Origin: Styela clava | Taxonomy: Eukaryota | Reading direction: 5' to 3' | Length of the DNA: 64,000 bases | Assembly: GCF_964204865.1 (NCBI RefSeq) | Contig: NC_135254.1 | Span: 1,426,001-1,490,000, forward strand | In this document: positions 1-52,722 of the stretch, in pieces | Layout: each line of letters starts with the position of its first letter | Numbering within the stretch: the stretch's first letter is position 1 | The notes under the pieces: model-generated | Database searches by the model: none | Told to the model about the DNA's origin: nothing | What the model saw: only the letters and a program-made list of their open reading frames with translations | Program-made: the position numbers and the translations under genes

Positions 1-482
1 TACACTGAACAGTGATCAGTGAAGTGTGACTGGTCAGAATAATTTTGTGCTTGGTATATTTTATTTAATACTGGCTGGTAGTACTCTGAACAGTGATCAA
101 TGAAGTGTGGCTGGTCAGAATAATTTTGTGCTTGGTATATTTTATTTAATTCTGGCTGATAGTACTCTGAACAGTGATCAATGAAGTGTGGCTGGTCAGA
201 ATAATTTGTGCTTGGTATATTTTATTCAATAGTGGCTGATAGTACTTTGAACAGTGATCAGTGAAGTGTGACTGGCCAGAATAATTTGTGCTTGGTATAT
301 TTTATTCAATACTGGGTGATAGTACTCTGAACAGTGACCAATGAAGTGTGACTGGCCAGAATAATTTGTGCTTGGTATATTTTATTTAATACTGGTTGAT
401 AGTACTCTGAACAGTGATCAGTGAAGTGTGACTGGTCAGAATAATTTGTTGCTTGGTATATTTTATTTAATACTGGCTGATA
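1..482. repeat. Tandem minisatellite, ~80-81 bp unit, 6 copies (may continue left of the window)
   Basis: Unit TACTCTGAACAGTGATCAGTGAAGTGTGACTGGTCAGAATAATTTGTGCTTGGTATATTTTATTTAATACTGGCTGATAG repeats head-to-tail with no spacers. About 1.6 units are at the paralogous site 46668-46800. Confidence 0.95.
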
Positions 483-1694
483 AGTGGGCCGGTTACAGAT
501 AATAGACTTGGTTGCTGGGCCAAAGGCTTAAAACTCAATATGAAAAACTGAATAAAAAGATTTATTTACAACAGCTAGGCTAACTAACGTTTATATAAAG
601 CACAATGTCACAATTGAGGTCACTAAAACTATAGTTGTAATTTAAGCAGAAACACTTCGGTTGGCCGGATCCGACCTACGGTCTATCATTTTGACCCCCC
701 CTTATATTGCCGCCGTGTATATGAGTACCTTTTGGGTCGCTAGAAAACGAGGTGAGCTGTGAAGCAAATAATGTCATCTTCAAGGAATCTTAAGTTTGCC
801 ATTCTTGAATTTGTAATTTTGATTAAATAATTTTTGGGAGAACTGTTTCACGAATAATATTCACTTAGAATTGTGTATGGACTGAATTACTAGAGATTGC
901 AAATACATAATTGGTTGTTCAGTTTTTTATTTTTTTATTGTTCATGTTACTGTGGAATTGATTTAATTTTACTAGTTTTTGCATTTCTTTTTATTTTATT
1001 TGCATGGTATTGTGTCAGGTATATTTGATGTTTTTATGACTTTTTGGTTAAGGCAGGTGTAACTCAACTATTAAATTTGTTCCTTGGTGCTAGTCTATCT
1101 TGGGTATTGGAATATGTAATATTTATTTACCAGCTGTTACACTGATAGTAACTGTACAACAGCGATCATGGCACATAGTTATCTCCCACAGGATTCGAAC
1201 AAGATAAGCAAAATCATATATGCACTGTCATGCTTCATTGATTCTACTCGGTAGGTTCAAATGCCACCAAACCCGATTGTACTGGAATATTCTGCACAAA
1301 CCTGGGTGGTATTTTACTTAGTTAGTTTGCTTGGTGGAAACCTTTGTGCACTTTAGTGTTGTCGAATAGGTTTAGATTTCTTCGAAAAACTTACCGGTAG
1401 GTTCTTAGGTTCTTCCTTGTCCATATACCTGTTTGAAAAAATTTAGTTTTAAATAATTTTGTATGAGGATTTTTTTGGTTGTATTACATTTGCATGGTAT
1501 TGTGTCTGTTAGGTTTTAGCACAGTGTTTGGCAAATGCTCGGGTCGCGAGATGTTAGAAATATTTTTAGGGTTGTGCCAATCGCGCCAGAAAGTGCTTAC
1601 AGACCATAAGTTAATGTGATATTAGTCCGTAAGTGGTTCAGAGCACAAAAAAAGAACTCTGGAACTAGGTTTTTAGGATAGGATATGATTTACA

Positions 1695-1980
1695 TATTCA
1701 TCCTGAGAGAGAGGAAAGTTACCATTCTATGTCGGGTATATGATTAGTTAGTTATTTGTTCTCTGAAGCATGGACTCGATGGTGGAGGAAGCCGTAAGCG
1801 ACCAGCGGTTACGTAAACCACCCTACGGCGGCGAGGAGTCCAGCAATCCTCTCGCATATAACCATCCCCGCGTGGGATTCGATCCTGCGAACCCACGCAG
1901 GGTAATCAGAGTTGTGGTGGCGAGCGTATTCCTAACGCTTAGCATGATGAGCCACACTGTCACGCTGCTTGTGCTGAGTT
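1695..1980 (-). mobile_element. tRNA-derived SINE-like element
   Basis: Minus strand has A-box-like TGGCTCATCATG and B-box-like GGATCGAATCCC. Related copies lie at ~48195-48330 (internally deleted) and ~57690-57970. Confidence 0.6.
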
Positions 1981-2319
1981 AAATGAAGCGTTTTAAATAC
2001 TTTACTGCTGGTTGTTATTCTCAGTTCAAATCTGTATCTTGGTCAAAGTTTCAATTTTGGGGTGCAAGCACTCATGCACTGAGATCTGTGTTCCACCATA
2101 ATTAGGGCCTCTTTAACAAGAGCCATAATATTTGGCAACAATTTTTATGTGTGGGCAGTCGATCTGGAATGCTTTTCCTTTTTGTAAATGGAAAGTTGGG
2201 ATAATTACGAAATGTAAGCAGTTGGTTAGAGAAAGTGAGATTTACAGAATAATGCTTTATTTATCTTTTGTCATTTCGGATCATATTTTGGTTTTAGTTT
2301 CGAAGCTGTTTTAGTTTGC

Positions 2320-2420
2320 GGTACCCCCCGAAGTATGTGTACCAGGTTAGGGTTAGGCCATAATTTCAGGTACAAATACTACGGGAGTCACGTGTCTAGT
2401 CTTCGAACTCATAACAAGGG
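2320..2420. mobile_element. Partial copy of the palindromic MITE family carrying GGTTAGGGTTAGG
   Basis: GTATGTGTACCAGGTTAGGGTTAGGCCATAAT is shared with complete copies at 58569-58785 and 59147-59340. Confidence 0.7.
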
Positions 2421-3390
2421 CCATAATTTGTTTATGCAACGACAGGTGATTTTCTTTTGGTAAAAGGAAATTGTTCTGGATTAAATACTTACCAAACTTT
2501 AGGAAGCTGGTTGGAGAAAGTGAGATTTACAGAAATATTGTTTGTCACGATTTGTGACGAATGAATGTACATAACATTTTTTAAAAACATACAAACCAGG
2601 ATGTGCTAAATAGGCCTATAGTTTCATACAGACATACTGATGCACAAAAATTCTTCAGTTTAAAATCGATAGTGAGAATTGTTGTCTTGTTCTAGAATAG
2701 CAAGGCAATTCATCACAGTAAAACCATAGTAGCTTCAGAAATAGGCTTATTTTTATCTTTTGTCATTTCAGATCATATTCTGGTCTTAGTTTCGAAGGTG
2801 TACTTGGATAGTATCTTATTTTCCTTTTGAAGTTTGTCTTTGCTTTCTCAAAACCTTAAAGTGTCACGTAATCAAACTTGGTTTTACTGTGGCGATTCAG
2901 GTTGTAAAAACCTCTTGTTTGTTGAAGGTGACATAGTGCTCAATCACAATATTCACTTTTTCATGTAATTTTTTGTTTGTCCGAATATATGGTGTAAATG
3001 GCAATAAAGAAATAGTATGTTTCTTCAAGTACAAGCCACATCGCTACAGTAAAACAAAACTAGCTCATTCTTCAAAAATGAACCTTTTTAATTTGTGTCA
3101 TGACGTAGCAAAGGCCATTTTTGGGTTTTAGTTTCAATGCTGTTCCTGTTTTAGATTTCAGATAGTACCTTATGTCCATTTTTGAAGTTAGACCGTTAGA
3201 ATCCGACTATTACAACCTTTGAATAAGCAAATTGGTTTTACTGTGGCGATCCAGGTTATTTATTCCTGTAATCATCTCTTGGTTGTTGAAGTTGTGAAAA
3301 CCAATATTTACTCTTTCTTTGTTCCCCCGAATATATTACTGCAGTTTTAAATACAGAAATAGTATAGTAGTATCTCCAATTATCGGAGAT

Positions 3391-6300
3391 ATGAGTGACC
3401 GACTAGAAGATGTGATCAGAGGATGTGTGAGACAATTTGCTTCAACTGTTGATTTCACAACCTTCGCACAATCTGGGAACGGACTCTCACTCAGTGTGCA
3501 AGATGTCACTACGGTCATTGAAAACCACAGATTCTCTGTTGAAGAACAGAAGAAGAAATTGTTCTGGCTTTGGGTCGAAAGGAACCAACCGAATGTAACA
3601 GCACAAAGGATAAGGAATCTTGTTACACGATACCATGCAGCTGAACAACAAGGCGCTGCTGCTCCTATTGGCAGACTTGAAGATGTTTTTCAAGATGTTA
3701 TTAAACGATTTACATCCAAGGAATTCAAGCAGTTTGCGGGATCAGGGCAGGGATTATCTCTTACTGAGTATGAAGTTGACACTATCACAGAAAATAATAG
3801 ATTCTCAGTGGAGGAGCGAAATCTTAAATTACTGTGGAAATGGAGGCATTCTAAGTATCCAAACACTAATGATGCAGCTGTGATAGAAAGAATAAGAGCA
3901 GTGGTTGGGCTTTATGTTCAAGATGCAAATCGAGTAGAGGAAGAACAGTTCATTCAGGAAGATGGAGACAGAATGCTGGAATCATTCAAAAAACTTTCTG
4001 TGAAACCAACTCAAACAACTGAAGTTTCAGAAGAAAAAGAATTTCTTGAAGTCGTGAAAAATTATACAAAGCAGATGTTGGAATCTCGATTGGAATCCGC
4101 CAGTGAAAAAACAAAAATGGATGATTTTATACTTCCCAAGGTGACTGAGTTCAAGGAATCCGAATCCAACAAACAGAGTAGTTTGCAATCAGTGGATATC
4201 ATGAAGATTCATTATGATAACTCAGTCAACCGTGTGATGTTGCTAGGAGACACAGGCTCAGGAAAAACAACATTCTCGATGAAATATGCATTGTCAGCGT
4301 TAGAAAATAAATTAAACTTTTCGAATGAAATTAAGATGGTCTATTTCGTTGATGTTTCTAATTTACAAGGTGATTCTCAATCAACTGCTTTTGATCTTCT
4401 ATTCGTTCAACAACTTGGTTCGAAACTTCCCGAGCATCTCCATCGTGTTGGACAAAAGTGGTTGAAACTGAATTCAAAACATATTCTACTTGTAGTTGAT
4501 GGGTTGGATCAGAGTCTGAAGCCTTTTGCAAATAATTATGGAAGAATTGGAGTGGACACTCTAGCGGAAACCAACACTATTCTCGCTAATATTTTATCCG
4601 GCCACATGTATCCAGGAATGAAGATTTTGTCAACGACTCGTTGGAATGTTTATTGGAAGTTGCCTCCATCTATCAAGGCCACCTTGAATCTCACCTTAGG
4701 GGGATGGGATGATAAAACACTGGAACTTCTTGCTGGAAAGTTATTTAGTCCTGACGCAAGAAAAATATTTGATGATTTGAGACGTAAAGCACCAGGTTTT
4801 GTTTCAAATCCGATGTTTTTTTTCTACTTGGTTCGAGTTTTAAAAGATTTCAAAGAAAGCGATGTTGATACTTTAACAAATCTGATGGTTTCTGTTTTGA
4901 ACCTTTTTTCAGGATCTCGTCATGGACAAAATGTCGGAAGTCTGTTATTGGAACTCATGAAGTTGGCTTACCACGGAATGATAGAGAATCGATTTGTTTT
5001 CACTGCAAGCTATATTAGATCACTTAAGTTGAATATGAATGACATGCGTGGTCTTGTTGAGATGGATGCTGACACTCGATTTGTTGAGTATGTTGCGGGT
5101 GACAACGACATCAGCTTACGGTTTTCACACCAGAGTATAGGAGAGATACTTGCTGCCCTGTATGCCTGTACTCTTGATTTGGATGAATACAAGAAGTTTA
5201 TCGAGAATTATTATAATAAACCAGGAATGGAAGTCGTTATAAAACATACTTTTGGAATTATTCTCAACAAATCAACTTCAGAAAAAGCAGCAAAATATCT
5301 TCCTGATAACTTGCATATCAAGTCTGAATACCTGATGGGCTACTTGGATAAATTATTGAAAGGAAGAGTCATTTCAGATAAACGAGTCGTGACTTTATTA
5401 CTTGAATGTGGTCCTGATGTGATCAAGAAAGTTTGCTCACAAATAGAAAAGATGGATTTGATGTCAGTCCAACTTGGAGATCAGCATGCAGTGATGTCTG
5501 TTGCTGATCATAGTTTTTCATTTCATACTTTGAAACTATTGAGATTGGAAATACATCCTGGGAATTATTATTTCCTGCAACATGTTCTTGGTTCTGTGCA
5601 GAATGTTGATGTGGAATTCTTCCATCTTATCAATTGTGATTCTGATGCTGAGAATCTTCGAATCCTGAATGAAACCGTGATGAAAGGAAACCTTAAGATT
5701 AGGTGGGACCTCACAATAAGAGAAAGTCCAGCACTTGAACCACTTGGTTATTATTATCTAATTGGATTGGTTTGTCATGGTGGTGCGGAAGGGCTTGAAC
5801 TGAGTGGCTGTGACCTGAATGCAGAGAAAATAAGTAAGATAAACCAAGCAGTCATTGAATATGATGTGAGGTTGAATTCATTGAATATTGATGCGGATCC
5901 TAACATGGATGCAGAAGCATTTCAACAATTGCCCCAATTATTAGGGAATGCAAAGACTGAAGATATCACACTGAATGACTGTGACCTGAATGCAGAGAAA
6001 ATAAGTAAGATGAATCAAGCAGTCATTGAATACGGTGTCAAGTTGGATTCATTGGATATTTATAGGAATCCTAATATGGATGCAGACGCATTTCAACAAC
6101 TGGCAAAGTTTCTGAAAAATACTGAGGTTAAAGATCTGTGGACACAAGATTGCATTCCAACCATTGAGCAGTTATCAGATTTTTGTTCAAGTTTAGAAAA
6201 TGAAGATGTCAAGTTGTCTCGCTTAATCCTGGGAAGATCAACTATAGAATCTCTCACTGATGATGAACTGATGATTGTTTCTAGATTGGTTCAGAGGGTG

Positions 6301-6444
6301 GAAGAGCTCGGGTTTTCTTGTCAAAAGTTGCCTGAGTCAAAGATGGAATTCCTGATTAAGGAAACTGCGAGACTTTGTCCAAGTGCAAAGATGAATAGTG
6401 ACTCATGGACTATCTATATAAGAAATCCAATTGTGAAATGCTGA
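3391..6444 (+). CDS. NLR-A: tandem Death-like domains + NACHT + LRR, single coding exon, 1017 aa from ATG 3391
   Basis: Two ~90-aa N-terminal repeats with a Death-domain-like pattern (LSLTEYEVDTITENNRFSVEERNLKLLWKWR). Walker A GDTGSGKTT, Walker B ILLVVDGLDQ, sensor-1 ILSTTR, NPMF, winged-helix FSHQSIGEILAALY, and RI-like LRRs with a 57-aa double unit. The track's 3319 start is a TTG; a candidate splice acceptor TACAG ends at 3356. Confidence 0.92.
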   Translation: MSDRLEDVIRGCVRQFASTVDFTTFAQSGNGLSLSVQDVTTVIENHRFSVEEQKKKLFWLWVERNQPNVTAQRIRNLVTRYHAAEQQGAAAPIGRLEDVFQDVIKRFTSKEFKQFAGSGQGLSLTEYEVDTITENNRFSVEERNLKLLWKWRHSKYPNTNDAAVIERIRAVVGLYVQDANRVEEEQFIQEDGDRMLESFKKLSVKPTQTTEVSEEKEFLEVVKNYTKQMLESRLESASEKTKMDDFILPKVTEFKESESNKQSSLQSVDIMKIHYDNSVNRVMLLGDTGSGKTTFSMKYALSALENKLNFSNEIKMVYFVDVSNLQGDSQSTAFDLLFVQQLGSKLPEHLHRVGQKWLKLNSKHILLVVDGLDQSLKPFANNYGRIGVDTLAETNTILANILSGHMYPGMKILSTTRWNVYWKLPPSIKATLNLTLGGWDDKTLELLAGKLFSPDARKIFDDLRRKAPGFVSNPMFFFYLVRVLKDFKESDVDTLTNLMVSVLNLFSGSRHGQNVGSLLLELMKLAYHGMIENRFVFTASYIRSLKLNMNDMRGLVEMDADTRFVEYVAGDNDISLRFSHQSIGEILAALYACTLDLDEYKKFIENYYNKPGMEVVIKHTFGIILNKSTSEKAAKYLPDNLHIKSEYLMGYLDKLLKGRVISDKRVVTLLLECGPDVIKKVCSQIEKMDLMSVQLGDQHAVMSVADHSFSFHTLKLLRLEIHPGNYYFLQHVLGSVQNVDVEFFHLINCDSDAENLRILNETVMKGNLKIRWDLTIRESPALEPLGYYYLIGLVCHGGAEGLELSGCDLNAEKISKINQAVIEYDVRLNSLNIDADPNMDAEAFQQLPQLLGNAKTEDITLNDCDLNAEKISKMNQAVIEYGVKLDSLDIYRNPNMDADAFQQLAKFLKNTEVKDLWTQDCIPTIEQLSDFCSSLENEDVKLSRLILGRSTIESLTDDELMIVSRLVQRVEELGFSCQKLPESKMEFLIKETARLCPSAKMNSDSWTIYIRNPIVKC

Positions 6445-6623
6445 AGTCGAATTATTATTTCAAGAAATTCTGAACAAGCTCAGTGAAGCGCGAGTTTCCA
6501 AGCATGAAGCATCCAAAGATACTTCACAAATATCCAACCTATTTTCAATTAACCCAAAACCACAAAATACTGTTGAATACCGGGCAATCCTGCATTTCAT
6601 CTTGCGAGGCCTACACTTCAAAT

Positions 6624-7214
6624 CAGGGGTGTGTAACTTTTAAATATCGGAGGGCCAAAACAAATAACTGGCCAAAAGCGTGTGCCGAATCTTTATTTCT
6701 TGTTATTGATCGTATGGCTTCATTAAGACTCCTTGCGGAAATGATGAGTTGAGACGCATAAATTTCTGGAGAAAATTGCTATTCAAATTTACTAACACTT
6801 AGACTTTAAACGAAGTCGATGGGACATTTGCAGATGGTTTTATTTCCCAACTACCAAATTTGCTTTAATGAAAATGTTAGCAATTTGAAGCCCATTATCC
6901 AAGTGTTTGTCTGTCAGAACTGATTGATAGGGGATTTCATATCGCCCATTTTAGAGCAAAATTGTTTGCAAAAATATGTTTAGCAAAAAAATGCCATTTT
7001 CGAATTTTTTTCAACATGGTAAGTATCTTGGTTGAATTAATTTCAATAAAAAAATCGCCAACATTCATTTTCAAATACTTTAAATCTGTTTTACGAAATG
7101 GACTGATGACATCATACGTATAGAATAAGTATAATAGGCCGGACACCATTCTGAATTGGCACTTGTCTGCGGGTGGAAAATTTTTTCCTGCGGGCCGCAG
7201 TTTGCATACTCCTG
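6624..7214. mobile_element. hAT-type MITE present only in copy A
   Basis: Ends CAGGGGTGTGTAACT and AGTTTGCATACTCCTG; 8-bp TSD CTTCAAAT/CTTTAAAT; empty site (CTTTAAAT) in copy B near 52982. Confidence 0.85.
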
Positions 7215-8907
7215 CTTTAAATGAAGGAATCAGACTATTATTATCACTGGTATATTTATTCTGAATTCTGATTAGATTTATTAGAAACTTTCCATTTTAC
7301 ATATTTTGACTTGATAGAACAGCCACTCAGACGTGCATATTCTTAATTAAATTAAACTGTAAGTTATACATTCTTATTTAGTGTGGCAATATATTTTCAG
7401 TGTGTGTTTATATTTTTAATAAAAATCTTCAAATATTTTACTTAAGTATGCTTTCGTAACTTTTATTCAACTGTTTTGAGGTAATTGATGCACAACTTGC
7501 ACAAGTTAAATTAAATATAATACTTTTTGATCCCTAATGCAACCAATATGTCACAATTCTATTTCTCATCATTGTTCTTTGTTGATGAAGTATAATGCCC
7601 CCATTTTTTATACATTCTTTTATTACTGTAAATATTAACTAATCTGTGTATTCTTGTGATTTAGCTTACTGTAGGCGATAATATATTAAGTCTTGTTTTT
7701 ACAAGAGCATTTTGGGATTTATAACTCATATAGAGATGTAACCTGGATATACTGGGAGTAGCTGTACCTGGGTATACTGAGCTGAACAGTCTGGTGAATG
7801 AAACGAGTAATTCTTGAATGGTTTTCATATTTAATTTTTTGATGAATTTCCAAATTTCCAGTCAAATTTTCTTTGAATTGAAACTGGTTTCGTAAACAGG
7901 TAAAAACATAGTAAATGCTCGTAGAGGGAGAATGTTCAATAAGTGGTCACATTTGGGCACAAAACTCTGTATTTTAAATATTATTTAATTTGGAGGTGTT
8001 TTTCTGATTGCAGATATGGCATAATACGAATGCATTGCCTCAGCGTAAAATAGAGATAAAAAACTGAGTAAATGGAAATGAATACAGATATAAAATGCTA
8101 TTTTTTCTGATGCTGCAACGGCTCTCACCCCTGCGTAACTGTTTTCCCGATATTTCTCTCGCTTTCATTTTGCGTTATAAAGGTGTCTCTACTAATTCCC
8201 GGTGTCTTATGATTAGCCATTTCATGCATGGTCATAACTGAAAAGTTATTATCTGGAGTAACAATGACGTTTTATAAAGTGACGTTTTTGAGAGAGTACA
8301 CAATGAGAAAAAGGCAAATTTAGTGTCAACATTAAACGGTGGTTCTATAAATAGAATCGATTGGAATCTGGTGAGTTGGTAATCACAGAAACATGGTACA
8401 AGTAGCTCAAAGCAATAATGTCAGTTCCGAATTTGTGACCTCCTCAAATTCAATTTTGATTTTCTTTTGATTTATTATCACGATTCACTTTGAAATATAT
8501 CAATTTATAATTTTTAATACCCTTAACATATGCCCATAGTTATATTGAAAAATGTCAGATTAACAATTCTTTTTCCTGGAAATAGCTGGACTGATATTGA
8601 AGTAGCAGGAAAAGTTACAGAATAACATTTGTTCAAGCATTAACTGGACTTAGTTAAATAAAAGTCTCACTGCCATGATAATAAATACCAAAATGAAACT
8701 ACAGGCTCACGAGTTTCGTCATAAAAGCATGGCTCAAAATATGATTTATATTAATATTGGCGTATCGGTTATCGGCCACTAGTTGGCCGATATATCGATA
8801 TCGACGTCAAAAAGTGATATCAATCGAGCTCTCCTTGTAACCGAAACCAATTTTTTTTATCCCTCTCTCTCCCTTCCTCATTAAATAAAAGTTTCTTTCC
8901 TGCTCAG

Positions 8908-9122
8908 AAGATCTCGCCAGACATGCTGGAAGATGATAATTTTTTTGACCTTATCACAAGACTTCAAGGTCGTAGGATGGACGACCAACGATGTGAAATG
9001 AGAGACGACCAATCTGAATTACCAGCGTTTTTAAGACCAAACCCCCCAGATCCCCCCTCAAATCATCACCCCGCGGAGAATGGGGCATTGGAGGGAACGA
9101 GAACTCATTGGAAATGATGGGG
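8908..9122 (+). pseudogene. Orphan GoLoco-motif exon (GPSM1/2-like first GoLoco), copy A
   Basis: Acceptor TTTCTTTCCTGCTCAG, then DDNFFDLITRLQGRRMDDQRCEM (GoLoco pattern FFxLxxxxQxxRMDDQR). Donor GTGAGT at 9123; in-frame stop at 9115-9117 just before it. Confidence 0.8.
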
Positions 9123-9269
9123 GTGAGTCTTCTTCCACAATTTTTTTTTAAATTGTTGCGAGTGGTTAACCCATGGGGAAACAGTAAACAGTGGACATAG
9201 TCATTCTACGATGCAGCTAAAGAGAATATTTTTTTTAATGGATCGTTGTGTTATTATGTTGTTCTTTTT

Positions 9270-9668
9270 ATTTATCGATCTTAAGATCGGTAAGTATATT
9301 GATAGGTATTTGTCTGTATGTATGTCTGTCTGTATGTATGTCTGTCTGTTAGATGCACGCGATATCTCACGAAAGCGAGATTGAATCTGCTCCAGATTTT
9401 GCATGTGCATTCATCTTATCTCGGACCAGTAGCCTATTGATTTTGGGCGAATTATGTCGTATAATTAGCGAGTTATCAATCAATTATTGATATAGTGATC
9501 TAGATTTTTGTAAAGCGAGAGAATTTTGAAACCCGCCGAGTGTGTGTGTGCGATGCGCAGTGCGCAAGTTACAAGAGCGGATGAATCGAAACTGCAGTTT
9601 CTGTTTTGGGGGATCCCCTAACTATCGATCGATAAGTCTTCGGTTTCCAACCGATATTCTCGTTTTTC
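9270..9668 (+). mobile_element. DINE-1/HINE-like non-autonomous Helitron/Helentron-type repeat
   Basis: TGTC/TATG microsatellite near the 5' end, ATCGATC near both ends, 3' hairpin CGGTTTCCAACCG, T-rich insertion site. A reverse-complement copy is at 63803-64000. Confidence 0.6.
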
Positions 9669-9669
9669 T

Positions 9670-11900
9670 TGTTGCTGTGAAAAAAATCGCTCTTGTCAAT
9701 GTTTTCAAGTTTATACAAAGCTCAGAGATTTGTTGTCATTTTATGCCGATGGCTGAAAATTCTTCAAAATCGTAGAAACAAGAATTTGACTTCATCTTTT
9801 GGTTCAATAACTGTACAAGAAATGGAAGATGCTAAGAAGATAATTTTAAAACTTATGCAGTGTCAAGTGTATCCAGATGAAATCGAAATATTGAACAAAC
9901 CTAAGAAATTCGATACTGTAAAGAAATCTTCATCATTATTCAAGCTTGATCCATGTATAAGATCTGATGGATTGTTGAGAATTGGGGGAAGATTGAAAGA
10001 TTCAAGTTTGCCTGAAGAATTGAAGCATCCTGTTATATTGCCCAAGTCTCATCATATTAGGACTCTAATAGTCAAGCATTATCATGAAGTCGTGAAACAT
10101 CAAGAACGTGGAATAACACTCAATGAAATAAGATCTGCTGGATTTTGGATAGTTTCTGGTATTACCGCTGTCTCAAGTTTCATACATCGCTGCACAAAAT
10201 GTAGAAGACTTAGACGAACATTTCAAGAACAGAAAATGGCTGTTTACCAAAAGACAGAATGGATGATAGTCCATGTTTTGTGATTATTTCCCCTTCAAGT
10301 TCAACGTCAGCGCGCAAGTTACCATGGAGTGTTTGGGAACGTCAAATTCGAAGTATTAGATCAGTTCTTTCATTCATTCTGGAAAAGAATGGAAGGCAAC
10401 TAGATGAGGATTCTCTTCGCACTCTGATGGCAGAGGCTGAAGCATTTGTTAATGGACGTCCTCTAGTTGTGGATAATTTGTCATGTCCTGATTCACCACT
10501 GCTTCTGACGCCTAATCATTTGTTGACTGCGAAGACAAGACTTGTACCACCACGTGTGTTTGGAAGGGAAGATTTGTACTCGCGTAAAAGATGGAGGAGA
10601 GTACAACATTTAGCCAATGAATTTTGGATTCAATTTCGTAAAGAATATTTACAATCACTTCAAGCTCTTCAAAAGTGGAACAAAGTTCAACGTGACCTGA
10701 AAATTGGTGATTTTGTCATAGTCGTTGACGAAAATACACCAAGAAATCAGTGGAAGACGGCAAGGATTGTTGATGTCTATCCTGATGCAGATGGTCATGT
10801 CCGAAGAGTTCGATTTCACATAGGAGATTTAACACTCGATGAAAGAGGGAAGCGTAAAAAGGATGTTCTTTTTCTTGATCGTCCAATCCAAAAGTTGATT
10901 CTTTTCTTGGAGAGTGGAGACACGGGAGAAGATTCCCGACGAGGGAGCCAGAAATAGACATTGTGAAGATTGTATTTTTATTTTAGTATAGAAATAGCAT
11001 TTCTAGGGGAGCCATGTAAATGATGACTCAGCCGTCATTTTATTTATTGGCCTTTGTCGCCTCATCGTGGTACTTTAGATTGTTGCGCAAGTTTGTCTCG
11101 TGGTTGCGCCATTTTCAGGATTTTGGTGAACAGGCTGACAGGGTTTTGTGCTTCTCTGATTTGGTCTAATATATTCATCTTTTTCCGTGCAGTTGAGATT
11201 ATTTAAATATTAAATTGAAGTATCTGCTTGTTTGTGATATTATTAGCCGAAAAAATCGGTAAGTCATATTTTATGTAAAGATATTTCTGTATTTAGGAAT
11301 TCATTTGCTGAGTGTTCCTACTTGCTTAATATAGGATTTTCATTGCAAATTCATATTAGTATAGAATAAGTAAAACACTGTGGACAAGTTATTGTTCGCT
11401 CTTTATTCATCAGTTATTCATACCTTCTTTATCGTGTGATCAGGTACAGGAAGCCTATACTAAATTTTGCCAATGTCTCTGGTTTTGCTTATAAGTTTAC
11501 TCCTATTTTAATTGCAATTTACACACTTCATCAGTTCATTGTGACTTTATATTGGAACACTTCATCAGTTCATTGAGACACTATTTTGGAACGCTTCATA
11601 ACATCTATTTCATTCTGTCATTTTTGAACACGATTTGGAAGTAACATCAAAACATTGTGTGGACAGTTTCTTGGGGTATCCAGGTTTCAGTGAGTGCAGA
11701 AGTGAGGTAAACGACGGTCTACACGGCGGAACATATGACTGCGAGTCTGTGACGAAAGAATTGAATAAGATAAGACTGTACTGCTGTAAGACTCGTAGCA
11801 TCGTGAACAGCAGCCGTAATAATGATTGATGAAAGATTCATTCAGATTCTACGTCCTTCAATGTGAGTTTGACGTATCGTTTGTACTGAGCTTCATAGCA
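9670..11900 (+). mobile_element. BEL/Pao LTR retrotransposon 3' fragment (deleted, frameshifted integrase) with probable 3' LTR
   Basis: Motifs LRIGGRL, KHPVILPK, HYHE...CTKC, WERQIRSIR, AEAFVNGRPL, LTPNHLL, RWRRVQHLANEFW, GHVRRV, RPIQKL. Purine tract GGGGAGCCA then TGT at 11015. The right end of the LTR is approximate. Confidence 0.88.
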
Positions 11901-13499
11901 GGAAATATGCAAAAGTAAGTAAAAACAGAATAGAATATAAAAATTGGCCCATTCATTCGTTTCCTATTCTGATGAGTTTTTGATAATCAAGTGATCTGCG
12001 ATGTATACAAATCAGGGATGGACCAAGCAGTCTCGAATAAACATCATGTTAGATTTGAATTGATGATGATAAAAATAATGTGATAAGATCTATGAAACAG
12101 ATTCCGTTAGATAAATTTCATCTTATATTGTTGCTAACAACCGTGCCATAAAACCCTACTCCCTAATATCACTACCATTTAATTTTACGTTTACCTGTAT
12201 TCTCAAAATCGTGTGCAGGATTAAAGGTATTTATTGGTGAAATTATGTATTTTGATTTCCAGTACTTTAAAATAATAAACCACTCAAGTCATCAAGAATT
12301 TTAACATAATTTTTTTGTTTTATAGCTTGGAGAGAAGAAGAAATTAAATCATGGTGTCTGCTATGATGACAACAAAACGGACTCTACATGATTTTGGTTT
12401 TATCTTGTGTAGGAGATACTCAACCTTACCGGTGTATTTGTTAAAAACAAATTGAATATTCGAATTGATACCTCAAACAATGTTAATATGAGAAAAATAG
12501 CTCAAACTACCAAATTGAATTACTATGTATTCACATTGATTTTTGCAAATTTTCCCTTGAACCTCTGAACCAGTTCCAGTCAAACGAATCTTACAATTTC
12601 CTTTTTCATGATATCAAATATCTTACATATGTTTCATAATTTGATTTCATATATGCGTTTGTACTACAGTTACTTTTTGATATATCTATGATGACTTTTA
12701 TTGAAAAAACAGTCTTAAGATTGAACATTTATCCCTGATATTCATTACGCTGAATATAAATAAAGTAATTACCGGTAATAGAAAAGTCTCAAGATGCTAA
12801 CAAAAAGGACTCCCTCGGAGATGAATCTTATTTCCGAAAAGAGTGTGTAGGGATCCTGCCAATCTGATGTTTGCATTTTTTTCAATAAATACAGTTAATT
12901 GCATGGATCTTGTTCTCTGTCAGGGATGATTTATAACCGGGAGAAGAGTAGTTTTGTATGTTCGTTCCCGTGGGAGTATTGGGATAATACTAATTTGATC
13001 AGGACAGTGGTCGTGATACCATGTTGTGCCTGCAATTTGTATTACAAATCTGAAACATCGTATAGTGTGTAAACCCCTGTCAATTGCCTATGCAATACAA
13101 ATAGAACTACACAATTGCATATATCAGTACGGACTTTAAAACTCATTTAATAATAGCATTTGAGCCACTGGTGAAATTATTCACTAATCGATCGAGTGGA
13201 GCAGTTCAGCCCAGGCATTGATATACCCATGATGAGGTGATAAAAAAGAAAGGTAATATAATTCTAATAATAATATGATATAAATAGACCCATTCAAGAA
13301 TCTATATTTCTCGAACCAGCATCTCTTTCTGAAATAATCAACATTTCAAACCAATTTAAAATCTGGGAAAGCAGTTGGACCTGACAACATTCCTTCTACT
13401 TAAAAGTCATGTATGATGGTATTGCACAGACAATACAAACATTTTTCAATGCATCTATCGAGTTCGGTATTTTCCCTGATGCTTTAAAATGTGCTTGAG

Positions 13500-15429
13500 C
13501 AGTGGTTCCCAACCTTTCTACCCTGGCGGACCAGTAAATTAAAATAAAAGTACTCGCGGACCGGCAAAAAATTGAAATGACCGAAACAGAAAAAAATAAC
13601 ATTTATTTGCGTAATACAGCGGTTCTCAACCTGTGGTACGCGTACCACTAGTGGTACGCGGGAGCTTTCCAAGTGGTACGCGAGCAGTTTTGAATTATTG
13701 CAACAATTAGCTCTTTATCTTCCATACTAAATGTATCCGCTGAACGGGTTTATAGCGTTACCAGTCCTTGTCTTTATAGCTCGCCCGCTGTTGCCCACCT
13801 AAAAGGAAACGAGACGGGCGCGTTTTCGCCACAATGTACGTCCACAATGTATCCACATTAAGAAATCGGCAACGAAGGGAGCGTTTTGCGGGAGTCGTCG
13901 ACACGTGTCGAGATACCTTGATTGCGCCTTAATATGTCCTAACGGTCTTACCACTGCTACCAGATGTACGTGTTGGCTGATCGGCCTAATTTAAAGCTAG
14001 CGCCGACCAAAGTGTATTCGTCTAAGTTTTGCGATAATTCGATTCGTTTCGCGATGATTTAAGCTATTCAGCTCTGACGGTGAATTCTCTCGTGATTTTG
14101 CACGCAATTAATACGTTGTTACAGCATATAATAAATACTTTGGAACTTTGTACGAAGGTTTAAAAATGGATGTAGTCTTACATAATATGCTACCGTATCG
14201 CGTTTCTTGTGCCACTGTTCCCCTCACAATTTTTTTTTTCGGTGGTACGCAGTCAGAGTAAAAAACACAAAAGTGGTACGCGGCCATTAAAAAGCTTGAG
14301 AAGCACTGGCGTAATATAATGCAATGCCGGGCACTCAATATGCTGCTAGACAAAAAAAGGCACACTTAAAACATTTCACACGAAAAAAACTATCAAATAA
14401 TGTGCCGGCCAAAAATTGAAATGGGTGAAACATAAAATAATATCATATATTTGCGTAATGAAATGCAGTGCTGGGCACCCATTATGCGTAAGAAAAGCAC
14501 GCATAAAACATGTCACATAAAAACATGTAAATGTCAAATAATGTACAAACACAATTACCTTTAGTGAGATTTTTGCTGCTGTTTCGTTTCCGATGCACGA
14601 TTGCAAACGAGGCCTCAAAGAAGTTTCTGCAAATCGTAGCTCTGCAGCGGCGTGCAGCTGATTTCTTTGCTTCGTTTTAATTAAAGCTAGTGATGAAAAT
14701 GTTTTTTCGCATAATGTAGTAACTGGTTGATAATACGAACAAGAGTTTGATTGCTCGATTACTTAGCGATGGGTATTCGTTATCAAGAGATATCCAAAAT
14801 TATGACAGTGATTCTTTTTTAAATCTGGACTGTAAGGTGAAATCACAATTTTAATCAAGAGTTTTCTTTTTCATCGGGTTCATCATATTAATCCCTCTGC
14901 AGTTGATCGATGCCTCAAACGAAATGAGTTTACATTACAATGACAAAGTCGTCGCTACCAGGCTCAAAATACTGAAAAAGATCTCTGCGGCCCATGCTTT
15001 TTTGCGCGTCTCGTGATCACCTGCAGGTTTGCAACAAGTTCATATCTTATTAGAATATTATACTGTCCTTGACTGTTTCCTGGTTTAAACAAAGAAATAT
15101 GCATAACGTTTTATATGGATGATCATATTAATCACAATAAGCACGCCGAACAGAAAAAGCACGCGTGCCGATATTTAGGTTTCTGAACCTTGCGAGATTT
15201 GATGGAGCGCATTCGCGATGAATCGGAGTCCGAAAAGCAAAAACTGTGATTACTCGGCGCCACGATGTTGCGAAAGACGTCGCCAAGATGTCGCAATATG
15301 ACGGCGGAAGAGAAATTGCGTAATAAACCAACGCAACCTCGCTACGGTAATAGGATTGAGACGACATAAAAACGAAATTTCTCACGGACCGGCAAAAAAG
15401 CTTCGCGGACCGGCGGTTGGGAACCACTG
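13500..15429 (-). mobile_element. Internally deleted hAT (Charlie/Buster-like) DNA transposon
   Basis: TIR CAGTGGTTCCCAAC/GTTGGGAACCACTG; TSD TGCTTGAG/TGCTAGAG. Minus-strand remnant at ~14560-14830 reads FWISLDNEYPSLSNRAIKLL...LCEKTFSSLALIKTKQRNQL (hAT dimerisation domain). Confidence 0.9.
13617..14308. mobile_element. hAT MITE nested inside the 13500-15429 element
   Basis: TIR CAGCGGTTCTCAA/TTGAGAAGCACTG; perfect 8-bp TSD GCGTAATA. Confidence 0.9.
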
Positions 15430-16277
15430 TGCTAGAGTAGTGCCCGTTTTCAAATCTGGTAGCAAAAAGCATATATCGAATTATAGGGCAATCTCAGTGC
15501 TCCCAATAATTTCAGCTGTCTTTGAAAGATTGATAGACGGTTATTATGTTTTATAGAAAACACAATATCATAACCTTATCTATGGTGTACTAAGTTTCAG
15601 TTATTTAAAATTAATTATACAACAACACATATTCTCTAGACAAATTAACAATCGCAACAATATAACTTATTTCACTGAGTTTTACAAAATGAATTTTGGT
15701 GATGGTTTTGCCTGGTACACCAGAGCAGTAGGCTACTTTATGCGTAGTAGTATATATTTACGCTTTCTGTGTGATGTTCAAGTACATTTCCCAGGTTCAT
15801 GAGATGTGTATTACCGACATCTGCACATAGCCCAAATCTTATGACCCGGGGCATATTTTTTTCAATTATAAGCAAATATTTAAAATAAAATAATCACGCT
15901 GGCCTGGCCCCAGAGACACAAAAAAGTTACCACCCCTATTCAAATTTCAGCCATTGGGAAGTAGGTTACAGCAAGGTAATTGATATGCAACATAAATTGG
16001 TATTTACTTTTTTTTCAACATATAGGCACCAGTTAACGCTACAGTAAAAAGACAATGAACGTGGTGAGGAATATAAATATCTAGATATGGCAACCAGTAG
16101 GAACACTACAATAAATTTTCGCTCGCAAAAAACTTTGTCATCTAATTCTTCCGGCTGGTATTTGTGAGAAGCCAACTCACCACGGCATGGTTCGAGCATT
16201 TGAGTTGGATCTCTTTTTGAACAGAAGAAACCCAAGCATGGATAGGCAGATCGCCAATGCTTGGTAACGAAACTGCT

Positions 16278-16512
16278 GTGGATGCCGTTGGCTGAACAAA
16301 GTTCAGCTCGTCCGCCTTCTGGTAAACCAAGGGTCCCACTACCCAAAGAGGTACATAACATGTGGATGCCGTTGGCCGGATAAAATCCAGCACATCCGCC
16401 TTTTGGTATACCAGGGGTTCCATTACCCAAAGAGGTAAATTACTTGCGAATGCCGTTGGCTGGATTTATCCAGCTCATCCGCCTTTTGGTATACCAGGGG
16501 TCCCACTACCCC
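16278..16512. repeat. 84-bp tandem repeat, ~2.8 copies, just 3' of the Zisupton coding region
   Basis: (G/A)ATGCCGTTGGC recurs at 16281, 16365 and 16449. Confidence 0.9.
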
Positions 16513-17208
16513 TAAAACCATGCTGTTCTTTTTGGCATGGCATGGTTGTTGATTTAATTAAGCACTGCTTAATAAGCACATCGGGCATCTCCATGATTTT
16601 TCGATTTTCACCCTCGCCTCCTTTGAGTATTTTAGGCACATTCTGAATGAAACCAGCGATCGCATTCATCACAACCAAGCTGTCAAACAAATGTGTGAAA
16701 TTTTTATCAAAAACATAATATGAGCCCACTCATTCTAGCTAGATCACAACAAGCAATATGATGAAATGATTCCAGGCACTGGAGCAGTGCAGGAATGAAT
16801 ACAAAAGCTAGCTCACGAAATTGTCTTCAGGTAGACAATACTAAGTGCAGCCCTTCATCTGGACAAATTTAGAGACTACCAGGGCTACTCAACTATTTTA
16901 CCAAAGATTCGTATACAGAATCTCAGGATTACAGACGTGTCTTTCAGTTAATATACCCAGCAGTGCGCCTAAATATATTTTAGTACATCTAACTTCAAAG
17001 TGTTATATATTGATAAAATAACCTTCGAAAGTATAAATAAAATCAGTAAAAGGAATTCCTCATATATCCAAGTTATTGAGTTGAGATACGTTATTATTTA
17101 CGTAAAAATACGAGTTTCAGTTATTTCCAGTTCGAAATTATTATATTGAAACCAGAAGTATGTGTACCAGTTTGAGATTAGGCCATACTTTAGGTACAAA
17201 CACTACGG

Positions 17209-18338: not shown

Positions 18339-18639
18339 CACTACGGGAGTGACCGAACTGGTAATAGAACTAAAACAAGGAAAATTGAAATAAAATAATG
18401 GCCCAACCTGGTGCACATACTTCTGGAGCACCAAATTTCCACCCTTCTTGCAACCCTCTCCAAACTAAGCCCATTGGCGCCATACCCTAGATACGCCACT
18501 GACAAATACTAATTTATAATGTAATTTTAAAAAATAAATGTGAGAACAAACCCAAGTTCCATGAGGCGTCGCAGTGCCACACATGCTGCACACACTGTTC
18601 ATATCTAAGGACATTGAGGTAAATATGAATAGAATAAAC

Positions 18640-31460: not shown

Positions 31461-31475
31461 CATCCTCTGCTACCA
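31461..31475 (-). promoter_or_regulatory. Copia primer-binding site (initiator Met tRNA)
   Basis: The plus strand reads CATCCTCTGCTACCA, matching the 3' end of animal tRNA-iMet, 2 nt inside the 5' LTR. Confidence 0.9.
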
Positions 31476-35747: not shown

Positions 35748-35990
35748 GTCTGTTTTTCTTTCATAGTGCCAAAATCCTTTATTACATCTTGTTCAATTTA
35801 CAATACTCTTTTAGCAGCCTGTTAACTTTACATGCAGTTCATACTAACTCTTGTCACCCATGTCATTTAATCATCCTCCCTATACACCAGCCCGGTAAAA
35901 TTCAAATATTTTATTTAAACTATAATTTCGGCCAAGGAGCTAACTTCCGATCCTAACTTTAAATGGGAGTCTACAAATTTCCATCCACAT

Positions 35991-49602: not shown

Positions 49603-52600
49603 ATGAGTGACCGACTAGAAGATGTAATCAGAGGATGTGTGAGACAATTTGCCTCAACTGTTGATTTCAAAACCTTCGCACAATCTGGGAACGGACTCTC
49701 ACTCAGTGTGCAAGATGTCACTATGGTCATTGAAAACCACAGATTCTCTGTTGAAGAACAGAAGAACAAATTGTTCTGGCTTTGGGTTAATAGAAACCAA
49801 CCGAATGTAACTGTACAAAGGATAAGAAATCTTGTTACGCAATACTATGCGCTGGAACAACAAGGCGCTGCCGCTCCTATTGAAAGGCTTGAAGATGTTT
49901 TTCAAGATGTTGCAAAACGATTTTCATCCAAGGAATTCGAGCAGTTTGCGCAGTTTGCAAGATCAGGGCAGGGATTATCTCTTGGAGCACATGAAATAGA
50001 CGAGGTCATGGAAGATTATAAATATACAAGAGAGCGCAAACTTAAATTACTGTGGAAATGGAGGTATTCTAAGTATCCGAATACTAACAATGCAGCAGTG
50101 ATAGAAAGAATAAGAGCAGTGGTTGGACTTTATGTTCAAGATGCAAATCAAGTAGAGGAAGAGCAGATCATTCAGGAAGATGGAGACAGAATGTTGGAAT
50201 CATTCAAAAAACTTTCTGTGAAACCAACTCTACCAACTGAAGTTTCAGAAGAAAAAGAATTTCTTGAAGTCGTGAAAAATTATACAAAGCAGATGTTGGA
50301 ATCTAGATTGAAATCCGCCAGTGAAAAAACAAAAATGGATGATTTTATACTTCCCAGGGTTACCGAGTTCAAGGAATCCAACAAACAGAGTAGTTTGCAA
50401 TCAGTGGATATCAGGAAGATTCATTATGATAACTTAGTCAACCGTGTGATGTTGCTAGGAGACACAGGCTCTGGAAAAACAACATTTTCAATGAAATATG
50501 CATTGTCAGCGCTGGAAAAAAGTTTAAATTTTTCGGACGAAATTAAGATGGTCTATTTTGTGGATGTTTCTAATTTACAAGCGGATTCTAAATCAACCGC
50601 TTTTGATCTTTTATTCGTTCAACAACTTGGATCGAAACTTCCTGAGCATCTCCATCGTGTTGGACAAAAGTGGTTGAAACTGAATTCAAAACATATTCTG
50701 CTTGTAGTTGATGGGTTAGACCAAAGTCTGAAGCCTTTTGCAAATAATTATGGAAGAATTGGAGTGGACACTCTAGCGGAAACCAACACTATTCTTGCTA
50801 ATATTTTATCCGGCCACATATATCCAGGAATGAAGATTTTGTCAACGACTCATTGGAATGTTTATTGGAAGTTGCCTTCAGATCTCAAGGCCACCTTGAA
50901 TCTCACCTTAGGGGGATGGGATGATGAAACACTGAAACTTCTTGCTGGAAAGTTATTTAGTCCTGAAGCAAGAAAAATATTTGATGATTTGAGACGTAAA
51001 GCACCAGGTTTTGTTTCAAACCCGATGTTTTTTTTCTACTTGGTTCGAGTTTTGGAAGATTTCCAAGAAAGCGATGTTGATACTTTAACAAATCTGATGG
51101 TTTCTGTTTTGAAACTTTTTACAGGATCTCGTCAGGGACAAAATGTTGAAAGTCTGTTATTGGAACTCATGAAGTTGGCTTACCACGGAATGATAGAGAA
51201 TCGATTTGTTTTCACTGCAAGCTATATTAGATCCCTAAAGTTGAATATGACTGACATGCGTGGTCTTGTTGAGATGGATGCTGACACTCGAGTTGTTGAG
51301 TATGTTGCGGGTGACGACGACATGAGGTTACGGTTTCCACACCAGAGTATAGGAGAGATTCTTGCTGCCCTGTATGCCTGTACTCTTGATTTGGATGAAT
51401 TCAAGAAGCTTATAGAGAATTATTATGAGAAATCAGGAATGGAAGTCGTTATAAAACATACTTTTGGAATTATTCTCAACAAATCAACTTCAGAAAAAGC
51501 AGCAAAATATCTTCCTGATAACATGCATATCAAGTCTGAATACCTGATGGGCTACTTGGATAAATTATTGAAAGGAATAGTCATTTCAGATAGACGAGTC
51601 GTGACTTTATTACATGAATGTGGTTCTGATGTGATCAAGAAAGTTTGCTCACAAATAAAAAAGATGGATTTGATGTCAGTCCAACCTGGAGAACAGCATG
51701 CAGTGATGTCTGTTGCTGAGCATAGTCCTTCACTTCATACTTTGAAATTATTCTGCTTGTTTGTACATCCTGGAAATTATTATTTCTTGCAACATGTTCT
51801 TGGTTCTGTGCAGAATATTTATGCGGATTACTTCTATCTTAGCAATTGTGACTCTGATGCTGAGAATCTTCGAATCCTGAATGAAGCCGTGATGAAGGGA
51901 AACCTTAAGATTAAGTGGAGCCTCGTAATAAGAGAAAGTCCAGCACTTGAACCACTTGGTTATTATTATCTAATTGGAATGGTTTGTCATGGTAGGCTTA
52001 AACTGAGTAGCTGTGGCCTGAATGCAGAGAAAATAAGCAAGATGAATCAAGCGGTCATTGAATATGGTGTCAAGTTGTTTTCATTGAATATTGAAAAGGA
52101 TCCTAACATGAATGCAGAAGCATTTCAACAATTGCCTCAATTATTAGGGAATGCAAAGACTAATAATCTCACACTGAATGACTGTGGCCTGAATGCAGAG
52201 AAAATAAGTAAGATGAATCAAGCCGTCATTGAATATGGTGTCAAGTTGTTTTCATTGAATATTGAAAAGGATCCTAACATGAATGCAGAAGCATTTCAAC
52301 AATTGCCTCAATTATTAGGGAATTCGAAGACTAATAATCTCACACTGAATGACTGTGGCCTGAATGCAGAGAAAATAAGTAAGATGAATCAAGCCGTCAT
52401 TGAATATGGTGTCAAGTTGGACTCATTGAGGATTGGTGAGAATCCTAACATGGATGCAGAAGCATTTCAACAACTGGCAAAGTTGCTGAAAAATACTGAA
52501 GGAAAGTTTCTGTCTGCACAACATTGCACTCCAACAACTGAGCAGTTATCAGCTCTTTGTTCAAGTTTAGAAAATGAAGATGTCGAGTTGTCTCGCTTAA

Positions 52601-52722
52601 ACCTGGGAAGATCAACTACAGAATCCCTCACTGATGATGAACTGATGATTGTTTCTAGATTGGTTCAGAGGGCGAGAAAGCTCGAGTTCTTTTGTCAAGA
52701 GTTGTCCGAGTCAAAGATGTAA
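49603..52722 (+). CDS. NLR-B: tandem Death-like domains + NACHT + LRR, 1039 aa, with a late premature stop
   Basis: Paralog of NLR-A with the same Walker A/B and three 171-bp LRR units (CGLNAEK codons start 52012, 52183, 52354). TAA at 52720 replaces GAA of copy A, and the homologous frame continues 33 codons to TAG at 52822-52824. Confidence 0.9.
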   Translation: MSDRLEDVIRGCVRQFASTVDFKTFAQSGNGLSLSVQDVTMVIENHRFSVEEQKNKLFWLWVNRNQPNVTVQRIRNLVTQYYALEQQGAAAPIERLEDVFQDVAKRFSSKEFEQFAQFARSGQGLSLGAHEIDEVMEDYKYTRERKLKLLWKWRYSKYPNTNNAAVIERIRAVVGLYVQDANQVEEEQIIQEDGDRMLESFKKLSVKPTLPTEVSEEKEFLEVVKNYTKQMLESRLKSASEKTKMDDFILPRVTEFKESNKQSSLQSVDIRKIHYDNLVNRVMLLGDTGSGKTTFSMKYALSALEKSLNFSDEIKMVYFVDVSNLQADSKSTAFDLLFVQQLGSKLPEHLHRVGQKWLKLNSKHILLVVDGLDQSLKPFANNYGRIGVDTLAETNTILANILSGHIYPGMKILSTTHWNVYWKLPSDLKATLNLTLGGWDDETLKLLAGKLFSPEARKIFDDLRRKAPGFVSNPMFFFYLVRVLEDFQESDVDTLTNLMVSVLKLFTGSRQGQNVESLLLELMKLAYHGMIENRFVFTASYIRSLKLNMTDMRGLVEMDADTRVVEYVAGDDDMRLRFPHQSIGEILAALYACTLDLDEFKKLIENYYEKSGMEVVIKHTFGIILNKSTSEKAAKYLPDNMHIKSEYLMGYLDKLLKGIVISDRRVVTLLHECGSDVIKKVCSQIKKMDLMSVQPGEQHAVMSVAEHSPSLHTLKLFCLFVHPGNYYFLQHVLGSVQNIYADYFYLSNCDSDAENLRILNEAVMKGNLKIKWSLVIRESPALEPLGYYYLIGMVCHGRLKLSSCGLNAEKISKMNQAVIEYGVKLFSLNIEKDPNMNAEAFQQLPQLLGNAKTNNLTLNDCGLNAEKISKMNQAVIEYGVKLFSLNIEKDPNMNAEAFQQLPQLLGNSKTNNLTLNDCGLNAEKISKMNQAVIEYGVKLDSLRIGENPNMDAEAFQQLAKLLKNTEGKFLSAQHCTPTTEQLSALCSSLENEDVELSRLNLGRSTTESLTDDELMIVSRLVQRARKLEFFCQELSESKM

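Follow-up and report, generated by a model that had tools for sequence, protein, structure and literature searches.

An intronless Death-Death-NACHT-LRR receptor family of Styela clava, likely founded by a retrocopy and most variable on its predicted ligand-binding face

Where does a receptor gene without coding introns come from in an ascidian genome, how do its copies come to differ, and what might they do? These questions are raised by a gene at positions 3391-6444(+) of a stretch of Styela clava DNA, 64,000 nucleotides long (NC_135254.1, positions 1,426,001 to 1,490,000 of the forward strand; G000:C5:1426001-1490000 in our numbering), hereafter the window, to which bare coordinates refer. 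In a single exon, it encodes a nucleotide-binding, leucine-rich-repeat receptor (NLR) with two Death domains, a NACHT NTPase and leucine-rich repeats (LRRs). Our analysis suggests a clade likely founded by one retrocopy of an intron-rich gene, whose present members are DNA duplicates and mosaics of one another; the family would quite probably serve as diversified cytoplasmic immune sensors, signalling most likely to Death-caspases.

The open reading frame runs for 1017 residues plus a stop, with zero internal stops, inside a stop-to-stop frame of 3298-6444, just as a first-pass annotation made from the letters alone had described it, and the domains named there are borne out as well. Pfam places NACHT (PF05729) at residues 281-445 with 52.4 bits (cut-off 26.7) and Death in two stretches with 28.7 bits (cut-off 22.6); a NOD2_WH match of 19.5 bits lies under its cut-off of 23.1. 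The Walker motifs are intact, at what we take to be Walker A at 4246 (residue 286) and Walker B at 4486 (residue 366), presumably with a sensor-1-like motif at 4630. The C-terminal region displays LxxLxLxxC/N repeats with nearly invariant core positions and a 171-base internal repeat (5799-5931 vs 5970-6102, 87% identity). A model of the whole protein contains beta-alpha repeats in this region, and in Foldseek this low-confidence model brings up NLRP proteins, NOD2, NLRC4 and ribonuclease inhibitor (E 5e-9 to 5e-5 for the NLRPs and ribonuclease inhibitor), by which the LRRs are of predicted ribonuclease-inhibitor type. Weighing against this assignment, Pfam at E<=1 gave zero LRR families for the 1017-residue protein, phmmer against solved structures gave zero relatives of it, and the whole-protein model, a single-sequence fold, is poor (mean predicted local distance difference test score, pLDDT, 41.9, with LRR residues 801-930 reaching 60-77). 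Identity as a transposon reading frame was considered and rejected, Pfam showing zero such families in the protein.

Aligned over 82 columns, the two N-terminal repeats share 45% identity (E 2e-21), and residues 1-190, modelled with a 31-row alignment, form two helical domains (mean pLDDT 84.1). When this model was compared with 48,161 solved chains, the six top rows were all death domains, with FADD the best match (Z 9.4, root-mean-square deviation 2.7, 77 aligned), followed by FADD again (Z 8.8), TNFR1 (8.6), RAIDD (7.8), RIPK1 (7.7) and ankyrin G (7.2). The pair as a unit aligns with tandem DEDs over about 140 residues (Z about 6.7), and the sequence profile of the region matches ankyrin and CRADD death domains (E 3e-4 to 7.5e-3). 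Some observations speak against a death fold. The Foldseek E-values are weak (best 0.55), with high-probability rows that are mostly death domains; a Z of 9.4 falls within the range that helical bundles attain by chance; and DSSP finds five helices per domain, with 76-81 residues aligning to death domains of 87-99 residues. The canonical death domain is a six-helix bundle. With death domains as first structural matches and Pfam Death above its cut-off, we retain the earlier reading of both repeats as death folds.

To see how many such genes the genome holds, we searched it with the Death pair (81 matches) and with NACHT, for which 150 of 178 candidates were scored, giving at least 150 NACHT matches. 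Membership was set at a NACHT identity of at least 54%, a level at which all rows belong to the intronless clade. By this measure the clade has at least 23 loci, 11 of them clustered in C5 at 0.90-1.48 Mb, the remainder spread over C5 (2 more), C9 (4), C18 (3) and C14, C16 and C19 (1 each). Sixteen are intact, each a single frame of 983-2490 codons, one has a late stop, and six are frameshifted, stopped or interrupted. All 10 matches in a homologue search of the receptor protein are annotated as Styela clava; the best named matches among 50% representatives also come from this species, 8 of the 9 looked up (of 150 listed) being named Styela, and a search for shorter proteins carrying the Death pair found one, again from Styela clava. 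The lineage-specific expansion proposed at first pass is thus upheld. An intron-rich sister clade, P0008 and P0009, sits in the same genome. Identities of 50-97% between copies, their spread over six contigs of 18-25 Mb and the different insertions in their flanks led us to reject an assembly artefact or allelic duplication.

The sister clade bears on how the introns were lost. Mapped by splicing, P0008 has 18 introns placed, to codon 1350 of 1650, and P0009 has 13, to codon 1043 of 1118. They map to residues 2, 66, 93, 160, ~185, ~216, 585, 639, 741, ~769, 885 and 942, so that at least 12 sister intron positions fall inside the span of the receptor frame, several of them mapped in gap-free alignment, and zero are retained. 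In a NACHT tree of 44 rows (quick method, midpoint root, three broken copies left out), 20 intronless rows lie on one side of a branch with an SH-aLRT support of 98-99, beside the intron-rich P0008/P0009 clade. Outside the clade, the next six NACHT rows (41-45% identity) sit in frames of 389-404 codons and nearly all others in frames of 360-630 codons, the size expected of NACHT exons. Since all sister introns disappeared on one branch, a single retroposition is the best explanation, and we infer that the clade founder was likely one retrocopy of an intron-rich gene.

One could instead hold that the single-exon state is ancestral, or that introns were lost stepwise, with no retrocopy event at all. 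Single-exon NACHT-LRR genes do exist in sponge, limpet, annelid and sea anemone (PMC3879445), and no poly-A tract or target-site duplication is visible, the latter not having been searched for. We nonetheless consider this quite unlikely, because three introns are common to sister and outgroup in place and phase (in the outgroup P0048, a Death-Death NLR, the counterparts of positions 66, 93 and ~155-160 are interrupted by introns, each of phase 1 like those of the sister), and because members with a partial intron set number zero among the 23 loci. Further points weigh against a founding retrocopy: a poly-A tract is absent from the 256 bases after the stop; the tree is quick and midpoint-rooted, with no one-clade test behind the support of 98-99; and P0050 and P0053, which may or may not keep introns, adjoin both clades. 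As for the poly-A tract, none would be expected now, because the present copies stem from later DNA duplications and the founder is old.

That the present copies are DNA duplicates follows from kilobases of upstream and downstream flank, including a GoLoco exon, that are common to the cluster copies. The retrocopy origin proposed at first pass therefore applies to the clade founder, which lost all sister introns, and not to the copies seen today. Two variants of it were discarded: separate retroposition of each copy, given the flanks shared between copies, and retroposition of the 3391-6444 copy itself, given the kilobases of flank it has in common with other cluster copies.

The window also contains a LINE-like element (34719-38936(+)) with an open ORF1 of 342 codons and an endonuclease-reverse transcriptase frame of 1005 codons. 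Such an enzyme therefore exists in this genome, and a link to the founder is only conjectural. The sister NLRs P0008 and P0009 (L079 and L084, on C2) begin with a hydrophobic leader that ends in a 2A-like motif with Gly replacing the usual Asp, recalling the leaders with a 2A-like motif of sea urchin NLRs (PMC4981915). Both have three Death domains; the intronless clade is without the leader and the first Death domain.

Family copies are mosaics that arose by segment exchange. Along the 3391-6444 gene, the nearest neighbour changes from L031 in the Death region (bootstrap 96) to L032 in NACHT and the helical domains (97) and to L039 in the LRRs (100). Identity to L032 is 97-100% in the later NACHT and helical region and 82-91% in the LRRs; to L039, it is 83-90% in Death domain 2 and the linker and 95-100% in the LRRs. 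Nearby informative sites (328 sites) were less incompatible with each other than in 2000 of 2000 shuffles, a result repeated with 85 synonymous sites. The number of 57-residue LRR units changes as well, from 1-4 per copy in most members to 28 in L037. This last locus (L037:815-8284(-), C5 at ~5.21 Mb) is one 2490-codon frame whose 28 units are near-identical; by eye, their ligand-face variation seems below that between cluster paralogues.

Is it the single exon that permits these changes? The first-pass annotation had thought so, proposing in-frame LRR recombination enabled by the intronless layout. Exchange and unit-number change are indeed seen. The layout as their cause is not supported: P0008 encodes the same LRR unit as phase-0 exons of 57-58 codons, exons of this size recur in the outgroup models, and the intron-rich models in the databases are anywhere from 1118 to 2508 residues long, so that LRR number varies in relatives whose unit is a separate exon, without need for a single one. 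The contrast drawn with the split LRRs of vertebrate NLRs likewise overstated the surprise, given that sponge DEATH-NACHT-LRR genes have NACHT and LRRs on one exon (PMC3879445). With an intron-rich sister in the same genome, the two clades offer a natural test of the effect of intron loss on repertoire diversification.

Selection differs between domains. We obtained the ratio of nonsynonymous to synonymous differences per site (pN/pS) for 16 of the 23 loci, nine of them among the 11 cluster copies. It runs from 0.2 to 0.6 in the Death, NACHT and helical domains and is ~1 over the whole LRRs of the cluster. Within the nine cluster copies, it rises to 2.07 at 50 exposed LRR positions, compared with 0.62 for the 40 core positions, 0.61 for the 204 remaining LRR positions and 0.25 for NACHT; over all 16 copies the exposed value is 1.28. 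The exposed pN of the nine was matched by 0 of 10,000 random site sets, and a codon model gave an omega of 13.5 vs 0.75, with twice the log-likelihood difference at 47.9 against omega = 1. The fastest variation in the family falls on the predicted ligand-binding LRR surface. Three features of the method tell against too strong a reading of these numbers: the exposed class was defined by LRR consensus after the alignment had been viewed, pairwise counts are non-independent, and recombination inflates tree-based omega, the 13.5 included.

The same data bear on the possibility that the proteins are decoys or regulators, or have a non-immune role, for example in the egg like vertebrate NLRP5 and NLRP14, their variation reflecting relaxed selection in a repeat-prone cluster. 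This we regard as highly unlikely. The whole-LRR ratio of ~1 in the cluster and the damage to 7 of the 23 loci would fit it, but the excess change is limited to exposed strand positions, the rest of the LRRs and NACHT staying well below 1, and the Walker motifs are preserved. The top Foldseek rows of the whole model are NLRPs of the oocyte lattice and the subcortical maternal complex; however, confidence in the model is low, and its scores for NLRP3, NOD2 and NLRC4 are comparable.

We return to immune sensing, and consider it likely that the copies serve as a rapidly evolving repertoire for detecting pathogens inside the cell. As general NLR biology would have it, the LRR face would sense a varying ligand, probably microbial, which would relieve autoinhibition; NACHT would exchange nucleotide and oligomerise; and the clustered Death pairs would nucleate homotypic recruitment of a partner with the same Death type, most likely a Death-caspase, then a Death-kinase. 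Cell death or inflammatory signalling would be the outcome. Counting against this scheme, its ligand, induction, oligomer and partner are all predicted from that general biology.

Whether the locus is transcribed at all was judged from three runs of three studies, treated as RNA by guess and none recorded as RNA, with paralogue reads pooled, both of which weaken the result. The runs do behave RNA-like: an intron is uncovered, and contigs end at exon edges where the other run continues. Contig depth over the frame is 65-166 (X1), 9-27 (X2) and 21-237 (third run), against 0-3, 0-4 and 0-16 in non-repeat flanks; a comparison run has ~1,000-3,600 in the flanks and 6,800-18,600 over the frame. One X2 contig matches 6363-6523 exactly, L039 differing by 2 bases and other copies by ~20%, which makes transcription of the 3391-6444 copy, or of an L039-like allele, likely. 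At the level of the family, RNA-type contigs cover the frame, so that the silence that would have undone the first-pass proposal is not seen there. An intron in the 5′ untranslated region is possible, with a candidate acceptor AG 35 bases ahead of the ATG (Table 1). Among the joints listed for the RNA-type contigs, zero lie upstream of the ATG, and one such contig extends to 3289, beyond the acceptor.

Which proteins could receive a Death signal? At L097:1130-5954(-) (C6, 18.84 Mb), two adjacent Death-caspase genes are single open frames of 654 and 573 codons. The 654-codon protein (Pfam Death 44 bits, caspase 151 bits) has a Death domain detectably similar to that of the receptor, and its 573-codon neighbour is more distant. 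Another detectably similar Death domain belongs to P0173, a Death protein whose layout is likely adaptor-like. In addition, in 6 of the 20 stretches fetched, a distance of 1.0-4.4 kb separates upstream Death exons from IRE1-like kinase exons that have no KEN match; these kinases (L091-L096; C18 at 1.86-1.99 Mb and C4 at 21.21 Mb), each with its same-strand upstream Death exon, possibly form a lineage-specific Death-kinase set.

A further kind of candidate came from contig C1. At two loci there, Death domain 1 is present as an unbroken copy that takes in the first few codons of Death domain 2; its DNA matches window 3387-3705 at 87-89% identity. Because these exons end a few codons into Death domain 2, the direction of copying was from receptor to kinase gene. 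They nest within the intronless clade, in a group with the C5 and two C9 copies that has a bootstrap of 96, and in both the frame is open, with an acceptor and, for the next exon, a fitting donor of phase 1. In the database models P0010 and P0011, the C1 Death exon is fused to a kinase-KEN part (Pfam Ribonuc_2-5A).

These observations invite the idea that the activated receptor recruits the C1 Death-IRE1-like kinase-KEN RNase, which would be switched on by clustering as are RNase L and IRE1. The copied Death exons with their fitting splice sites and the fused database models would agree with it, as would the intact kinase motifs; P0010 moreover keeps a His aligned with the last motif His of this genome's IRE1, a residue whose importance is known for the KEN/HEPN motif (PMC3710099). 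P0011, however, has Tyr at that position, and a newer annotation makes the kinase part of one C1 locus a separate protein, P0012. In the three RNA-type runs, no contig among those listed bridged the C1 Death exon and the one that follows it, the exon part unique to C1 was essentially uncovered (depth 0-0.25), and the following exon was seen spliced to other upstream exons. Between the two C1 Death exons, pN/pS is 1.47 (15.2 vs 2.8 changes), and therefore no purifying selection has acted on them since their split. Such recruitment thus appears unlikely to us, and it is equally doubtful that hypervariable, retrocopy-born NLRs fire an RNase L-like enzyme directly through a donated Death domain, without 2-5A or interferon; if they did, this would be a recent animal NLR-to-RNase pathway built by exon copying, beside older Death-kinase and Death-caspase partners. 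A complex prediction for three Death pairs with three C1 Death domains scored 0.00 with the alignment unused, and was counted neither way. Death-caspases remain our favoured partners.

The C1 kinases belong to a wider set. IRE1-like kinase-KEN genes are expanded (L098-L100, L104-L108), with five close loci on C1 and C2 and others on C5 and C8; the canonical IRE1 of this genome is a single 1268-codon open frame. From motif likeness, we take the middle of the C1 proteins to be FN3/ZU5/UPA-like (FIIND, ZU5-UPA), and likewise the tail of a clade member at L050:2632-6543(-) (C19, ~15.69 Mb), whose frame continues beyond short LRRs into extra sequence and whose Death domain 1 is split by ~11 kb. Searches for ZU5/UPA in L050 and the C1 proteins gave zero Pfam or PDB sequence matches, and FN3 came up only at E 1.8, so that these labels are unconfirmed. 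A block to which we give the same presumptive label, 60-82% identical, occurs on NACHT-LRR, caspase and kinase-KEN proteins (P0013, P0016-P0028); its presence in three protein types indicates, at the sequence level, active domain shuffling in Styela clava.

Within the window, the receptor gene is part of a duplicated segment (Table 1). The second family member has its stop after codon 1039, losing ~34 C-terminal residues. A second stray GoLoco exon lies at ~56444-56635, and at C5 ~1.00 Mb (L111) a GoLoco exon is followed by a second one, which suggests that the stray exon comes from the 3′ end of a GPSM-like gene; a coarse scan of the next 30 kb there revealed none of the upstream exons of the GoLoco gene. 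Six copies of an 80-base tandem repeat occupy window 1-482, upstream of the gene, and some paralogues have the same repeat upstream. Retroelement fragments (integrase-associated, RVT_2 and RVT_1 matches) lie between the receptor copies at 9681-10957, 25069-33323 and 40144-44086. Elsewhere, on C18, L070:2205-2459 and L067:8728-9255 hold stray intronless Death pieces (Death 2 alone, and a Death pair without NACHT), possibly captured or decaying fragments.

Table 1. Positions of features in the window
Feature	Position	Strand	Basis or remark
Single-exon coding sequence, Death-Death-NACHT-LRR protein, 1017 aa	3391..6444	+	Frame translation, Pfam
Death domain 1, residues 1-86	3391..3648	+	Pfam; structure model with five helices
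Death domain 2, residues 94-180	3670..3930	+	Pfam; model; 45% identical to Death domain 1
NACHT NTPase, Pfam residues 281-445	4231..4725	+	Purifying selection
Helical domain 1, winged helix (weak NOD2_WH, residues 518-553), helical domain 2	4726..5460	+	Approximate borders
LRR region, ~ten beta-alpha repeats	5461..6342	+	Exposed strand positions hypervariable between paralogues
Two copies of 171-base (57-residue) double-LRR unit	5799..6140	+	Internal repeat
Possible splice acceptor of 5′ untranslated region intron, AG at 3355-3356	3340..3356	+	Sequence; kept in most close copies
Duplicated segment: gene, flanks, stray GoLoco exon	347..9152	+	Recurs at 46667-56687 and other cluster loci
GoLoco-motif exon within duplicated segment	8908..9111	+	8 genome copies, all in cluster
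Second copy of duplicated segment	46667..56687	+	Repeats 347..9152
Second family member	49603..52722	+	80% identical to 3391-6444 gene; three 57-residue units

How does this family compare with known systems? Tunicates are the sister group of vertebrates, and the sequences of one clade here appear to record how it was born by retroposition, spread by duplication, exchanged segments and came under selection on its LRR face, while naming candidate partners (Death-caspase, Death-kinase, Death-kinase-RNase) for an NLR pathway in an invertebrate chordate. Already known are Death-NACHT-LRR receptors and single-exon NACHT-LRR genes; what we add is a tandem Death pair in an ascidian, a traceable retro-origin, plant-like diversification and a donated Death exon. 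Our literature search, in which subscription journals were thinly covered (sea urchin, amphioxus and Hydra NLRs), found no account of Styela NLRs, no retrocopy-derived animal NLR clade and no Death-kinase-KEN protein. Retroposition has been proposed as a generator of immune domain fusions in marine invertebrates (PMC8195603).

The nearest likeness is to the NLRD receptors of sponge (AqNLR clade C), sea urchin and amphioxus (PMC3879445, PMC11508797, PMC4981915), with the same Death, NACHT and LRRs and lineage-specific expansion; one exon holds both NACHT and LRRs in sponge clade C, as in Styela clava, an arrangement also described for limpet, annelid and anemone NLRs (PMC3879445). The Styela clava genes differ in having a tandem Death pair in the same exon and a traceable intron-rich parent clade in the genome. 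A survey that describes the NLRD class states that ascidian NLRs lack an N-terminal domain (PMC11508797), which does not hold for Styela clava. As single domains, the Death repeats match FADD, TNFR1, RAIDD and RIPK1 best, with no sequence-detectable orthology. Vertebrate NOD2 carries tandem CARDs. It resembles the Styela clava receptor in placing tandem death-fold domains ahead of NACHT and ribonuclease-inhibitor-type LRRs, and differs in that the ascidian domains are Death, not CARD, by Pfam and best structural match.

The C1 genes share with RNase L and IRE1 an IRE1-like kinase followed by Pfam Ribonuc_2-5A (PMC3710099), with a predicted N-terminal Death domain replacing the ankyrin repeats or the lumenal sensor. 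For KEN, a table row in that paper gives fusions to ankyrin, CCCH, UBI and BRCT, not Death, and Death fusions are given for other HEPN families (PMC3710099). The zebrafish NLR-B30.2 genes (PMC4852459) are another large clustered chordate family, with gene conversion differing by domain; there, each domain and LRR has its own exon and selection acts on B30.2, whereas the Styela clava clade has zero coding introns and selection on the LRR face. Finally, the plant type I NLR clusters, with their single-exon coiled-coil NLRs (CNLs; PMC3782705), show the same clustering, frequent exchange and often single-exon genes, and likewise purifying selection on the NTPase and diversifying selection on the LRRs. 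Plant NLRs are of independent origin, with NB-ARC instead of NACHT and coiled-coil or TIR instead of Death, and yet, judged from its sequences, the Styela clava family evolves in the manner of a plant type I NLR cluster.

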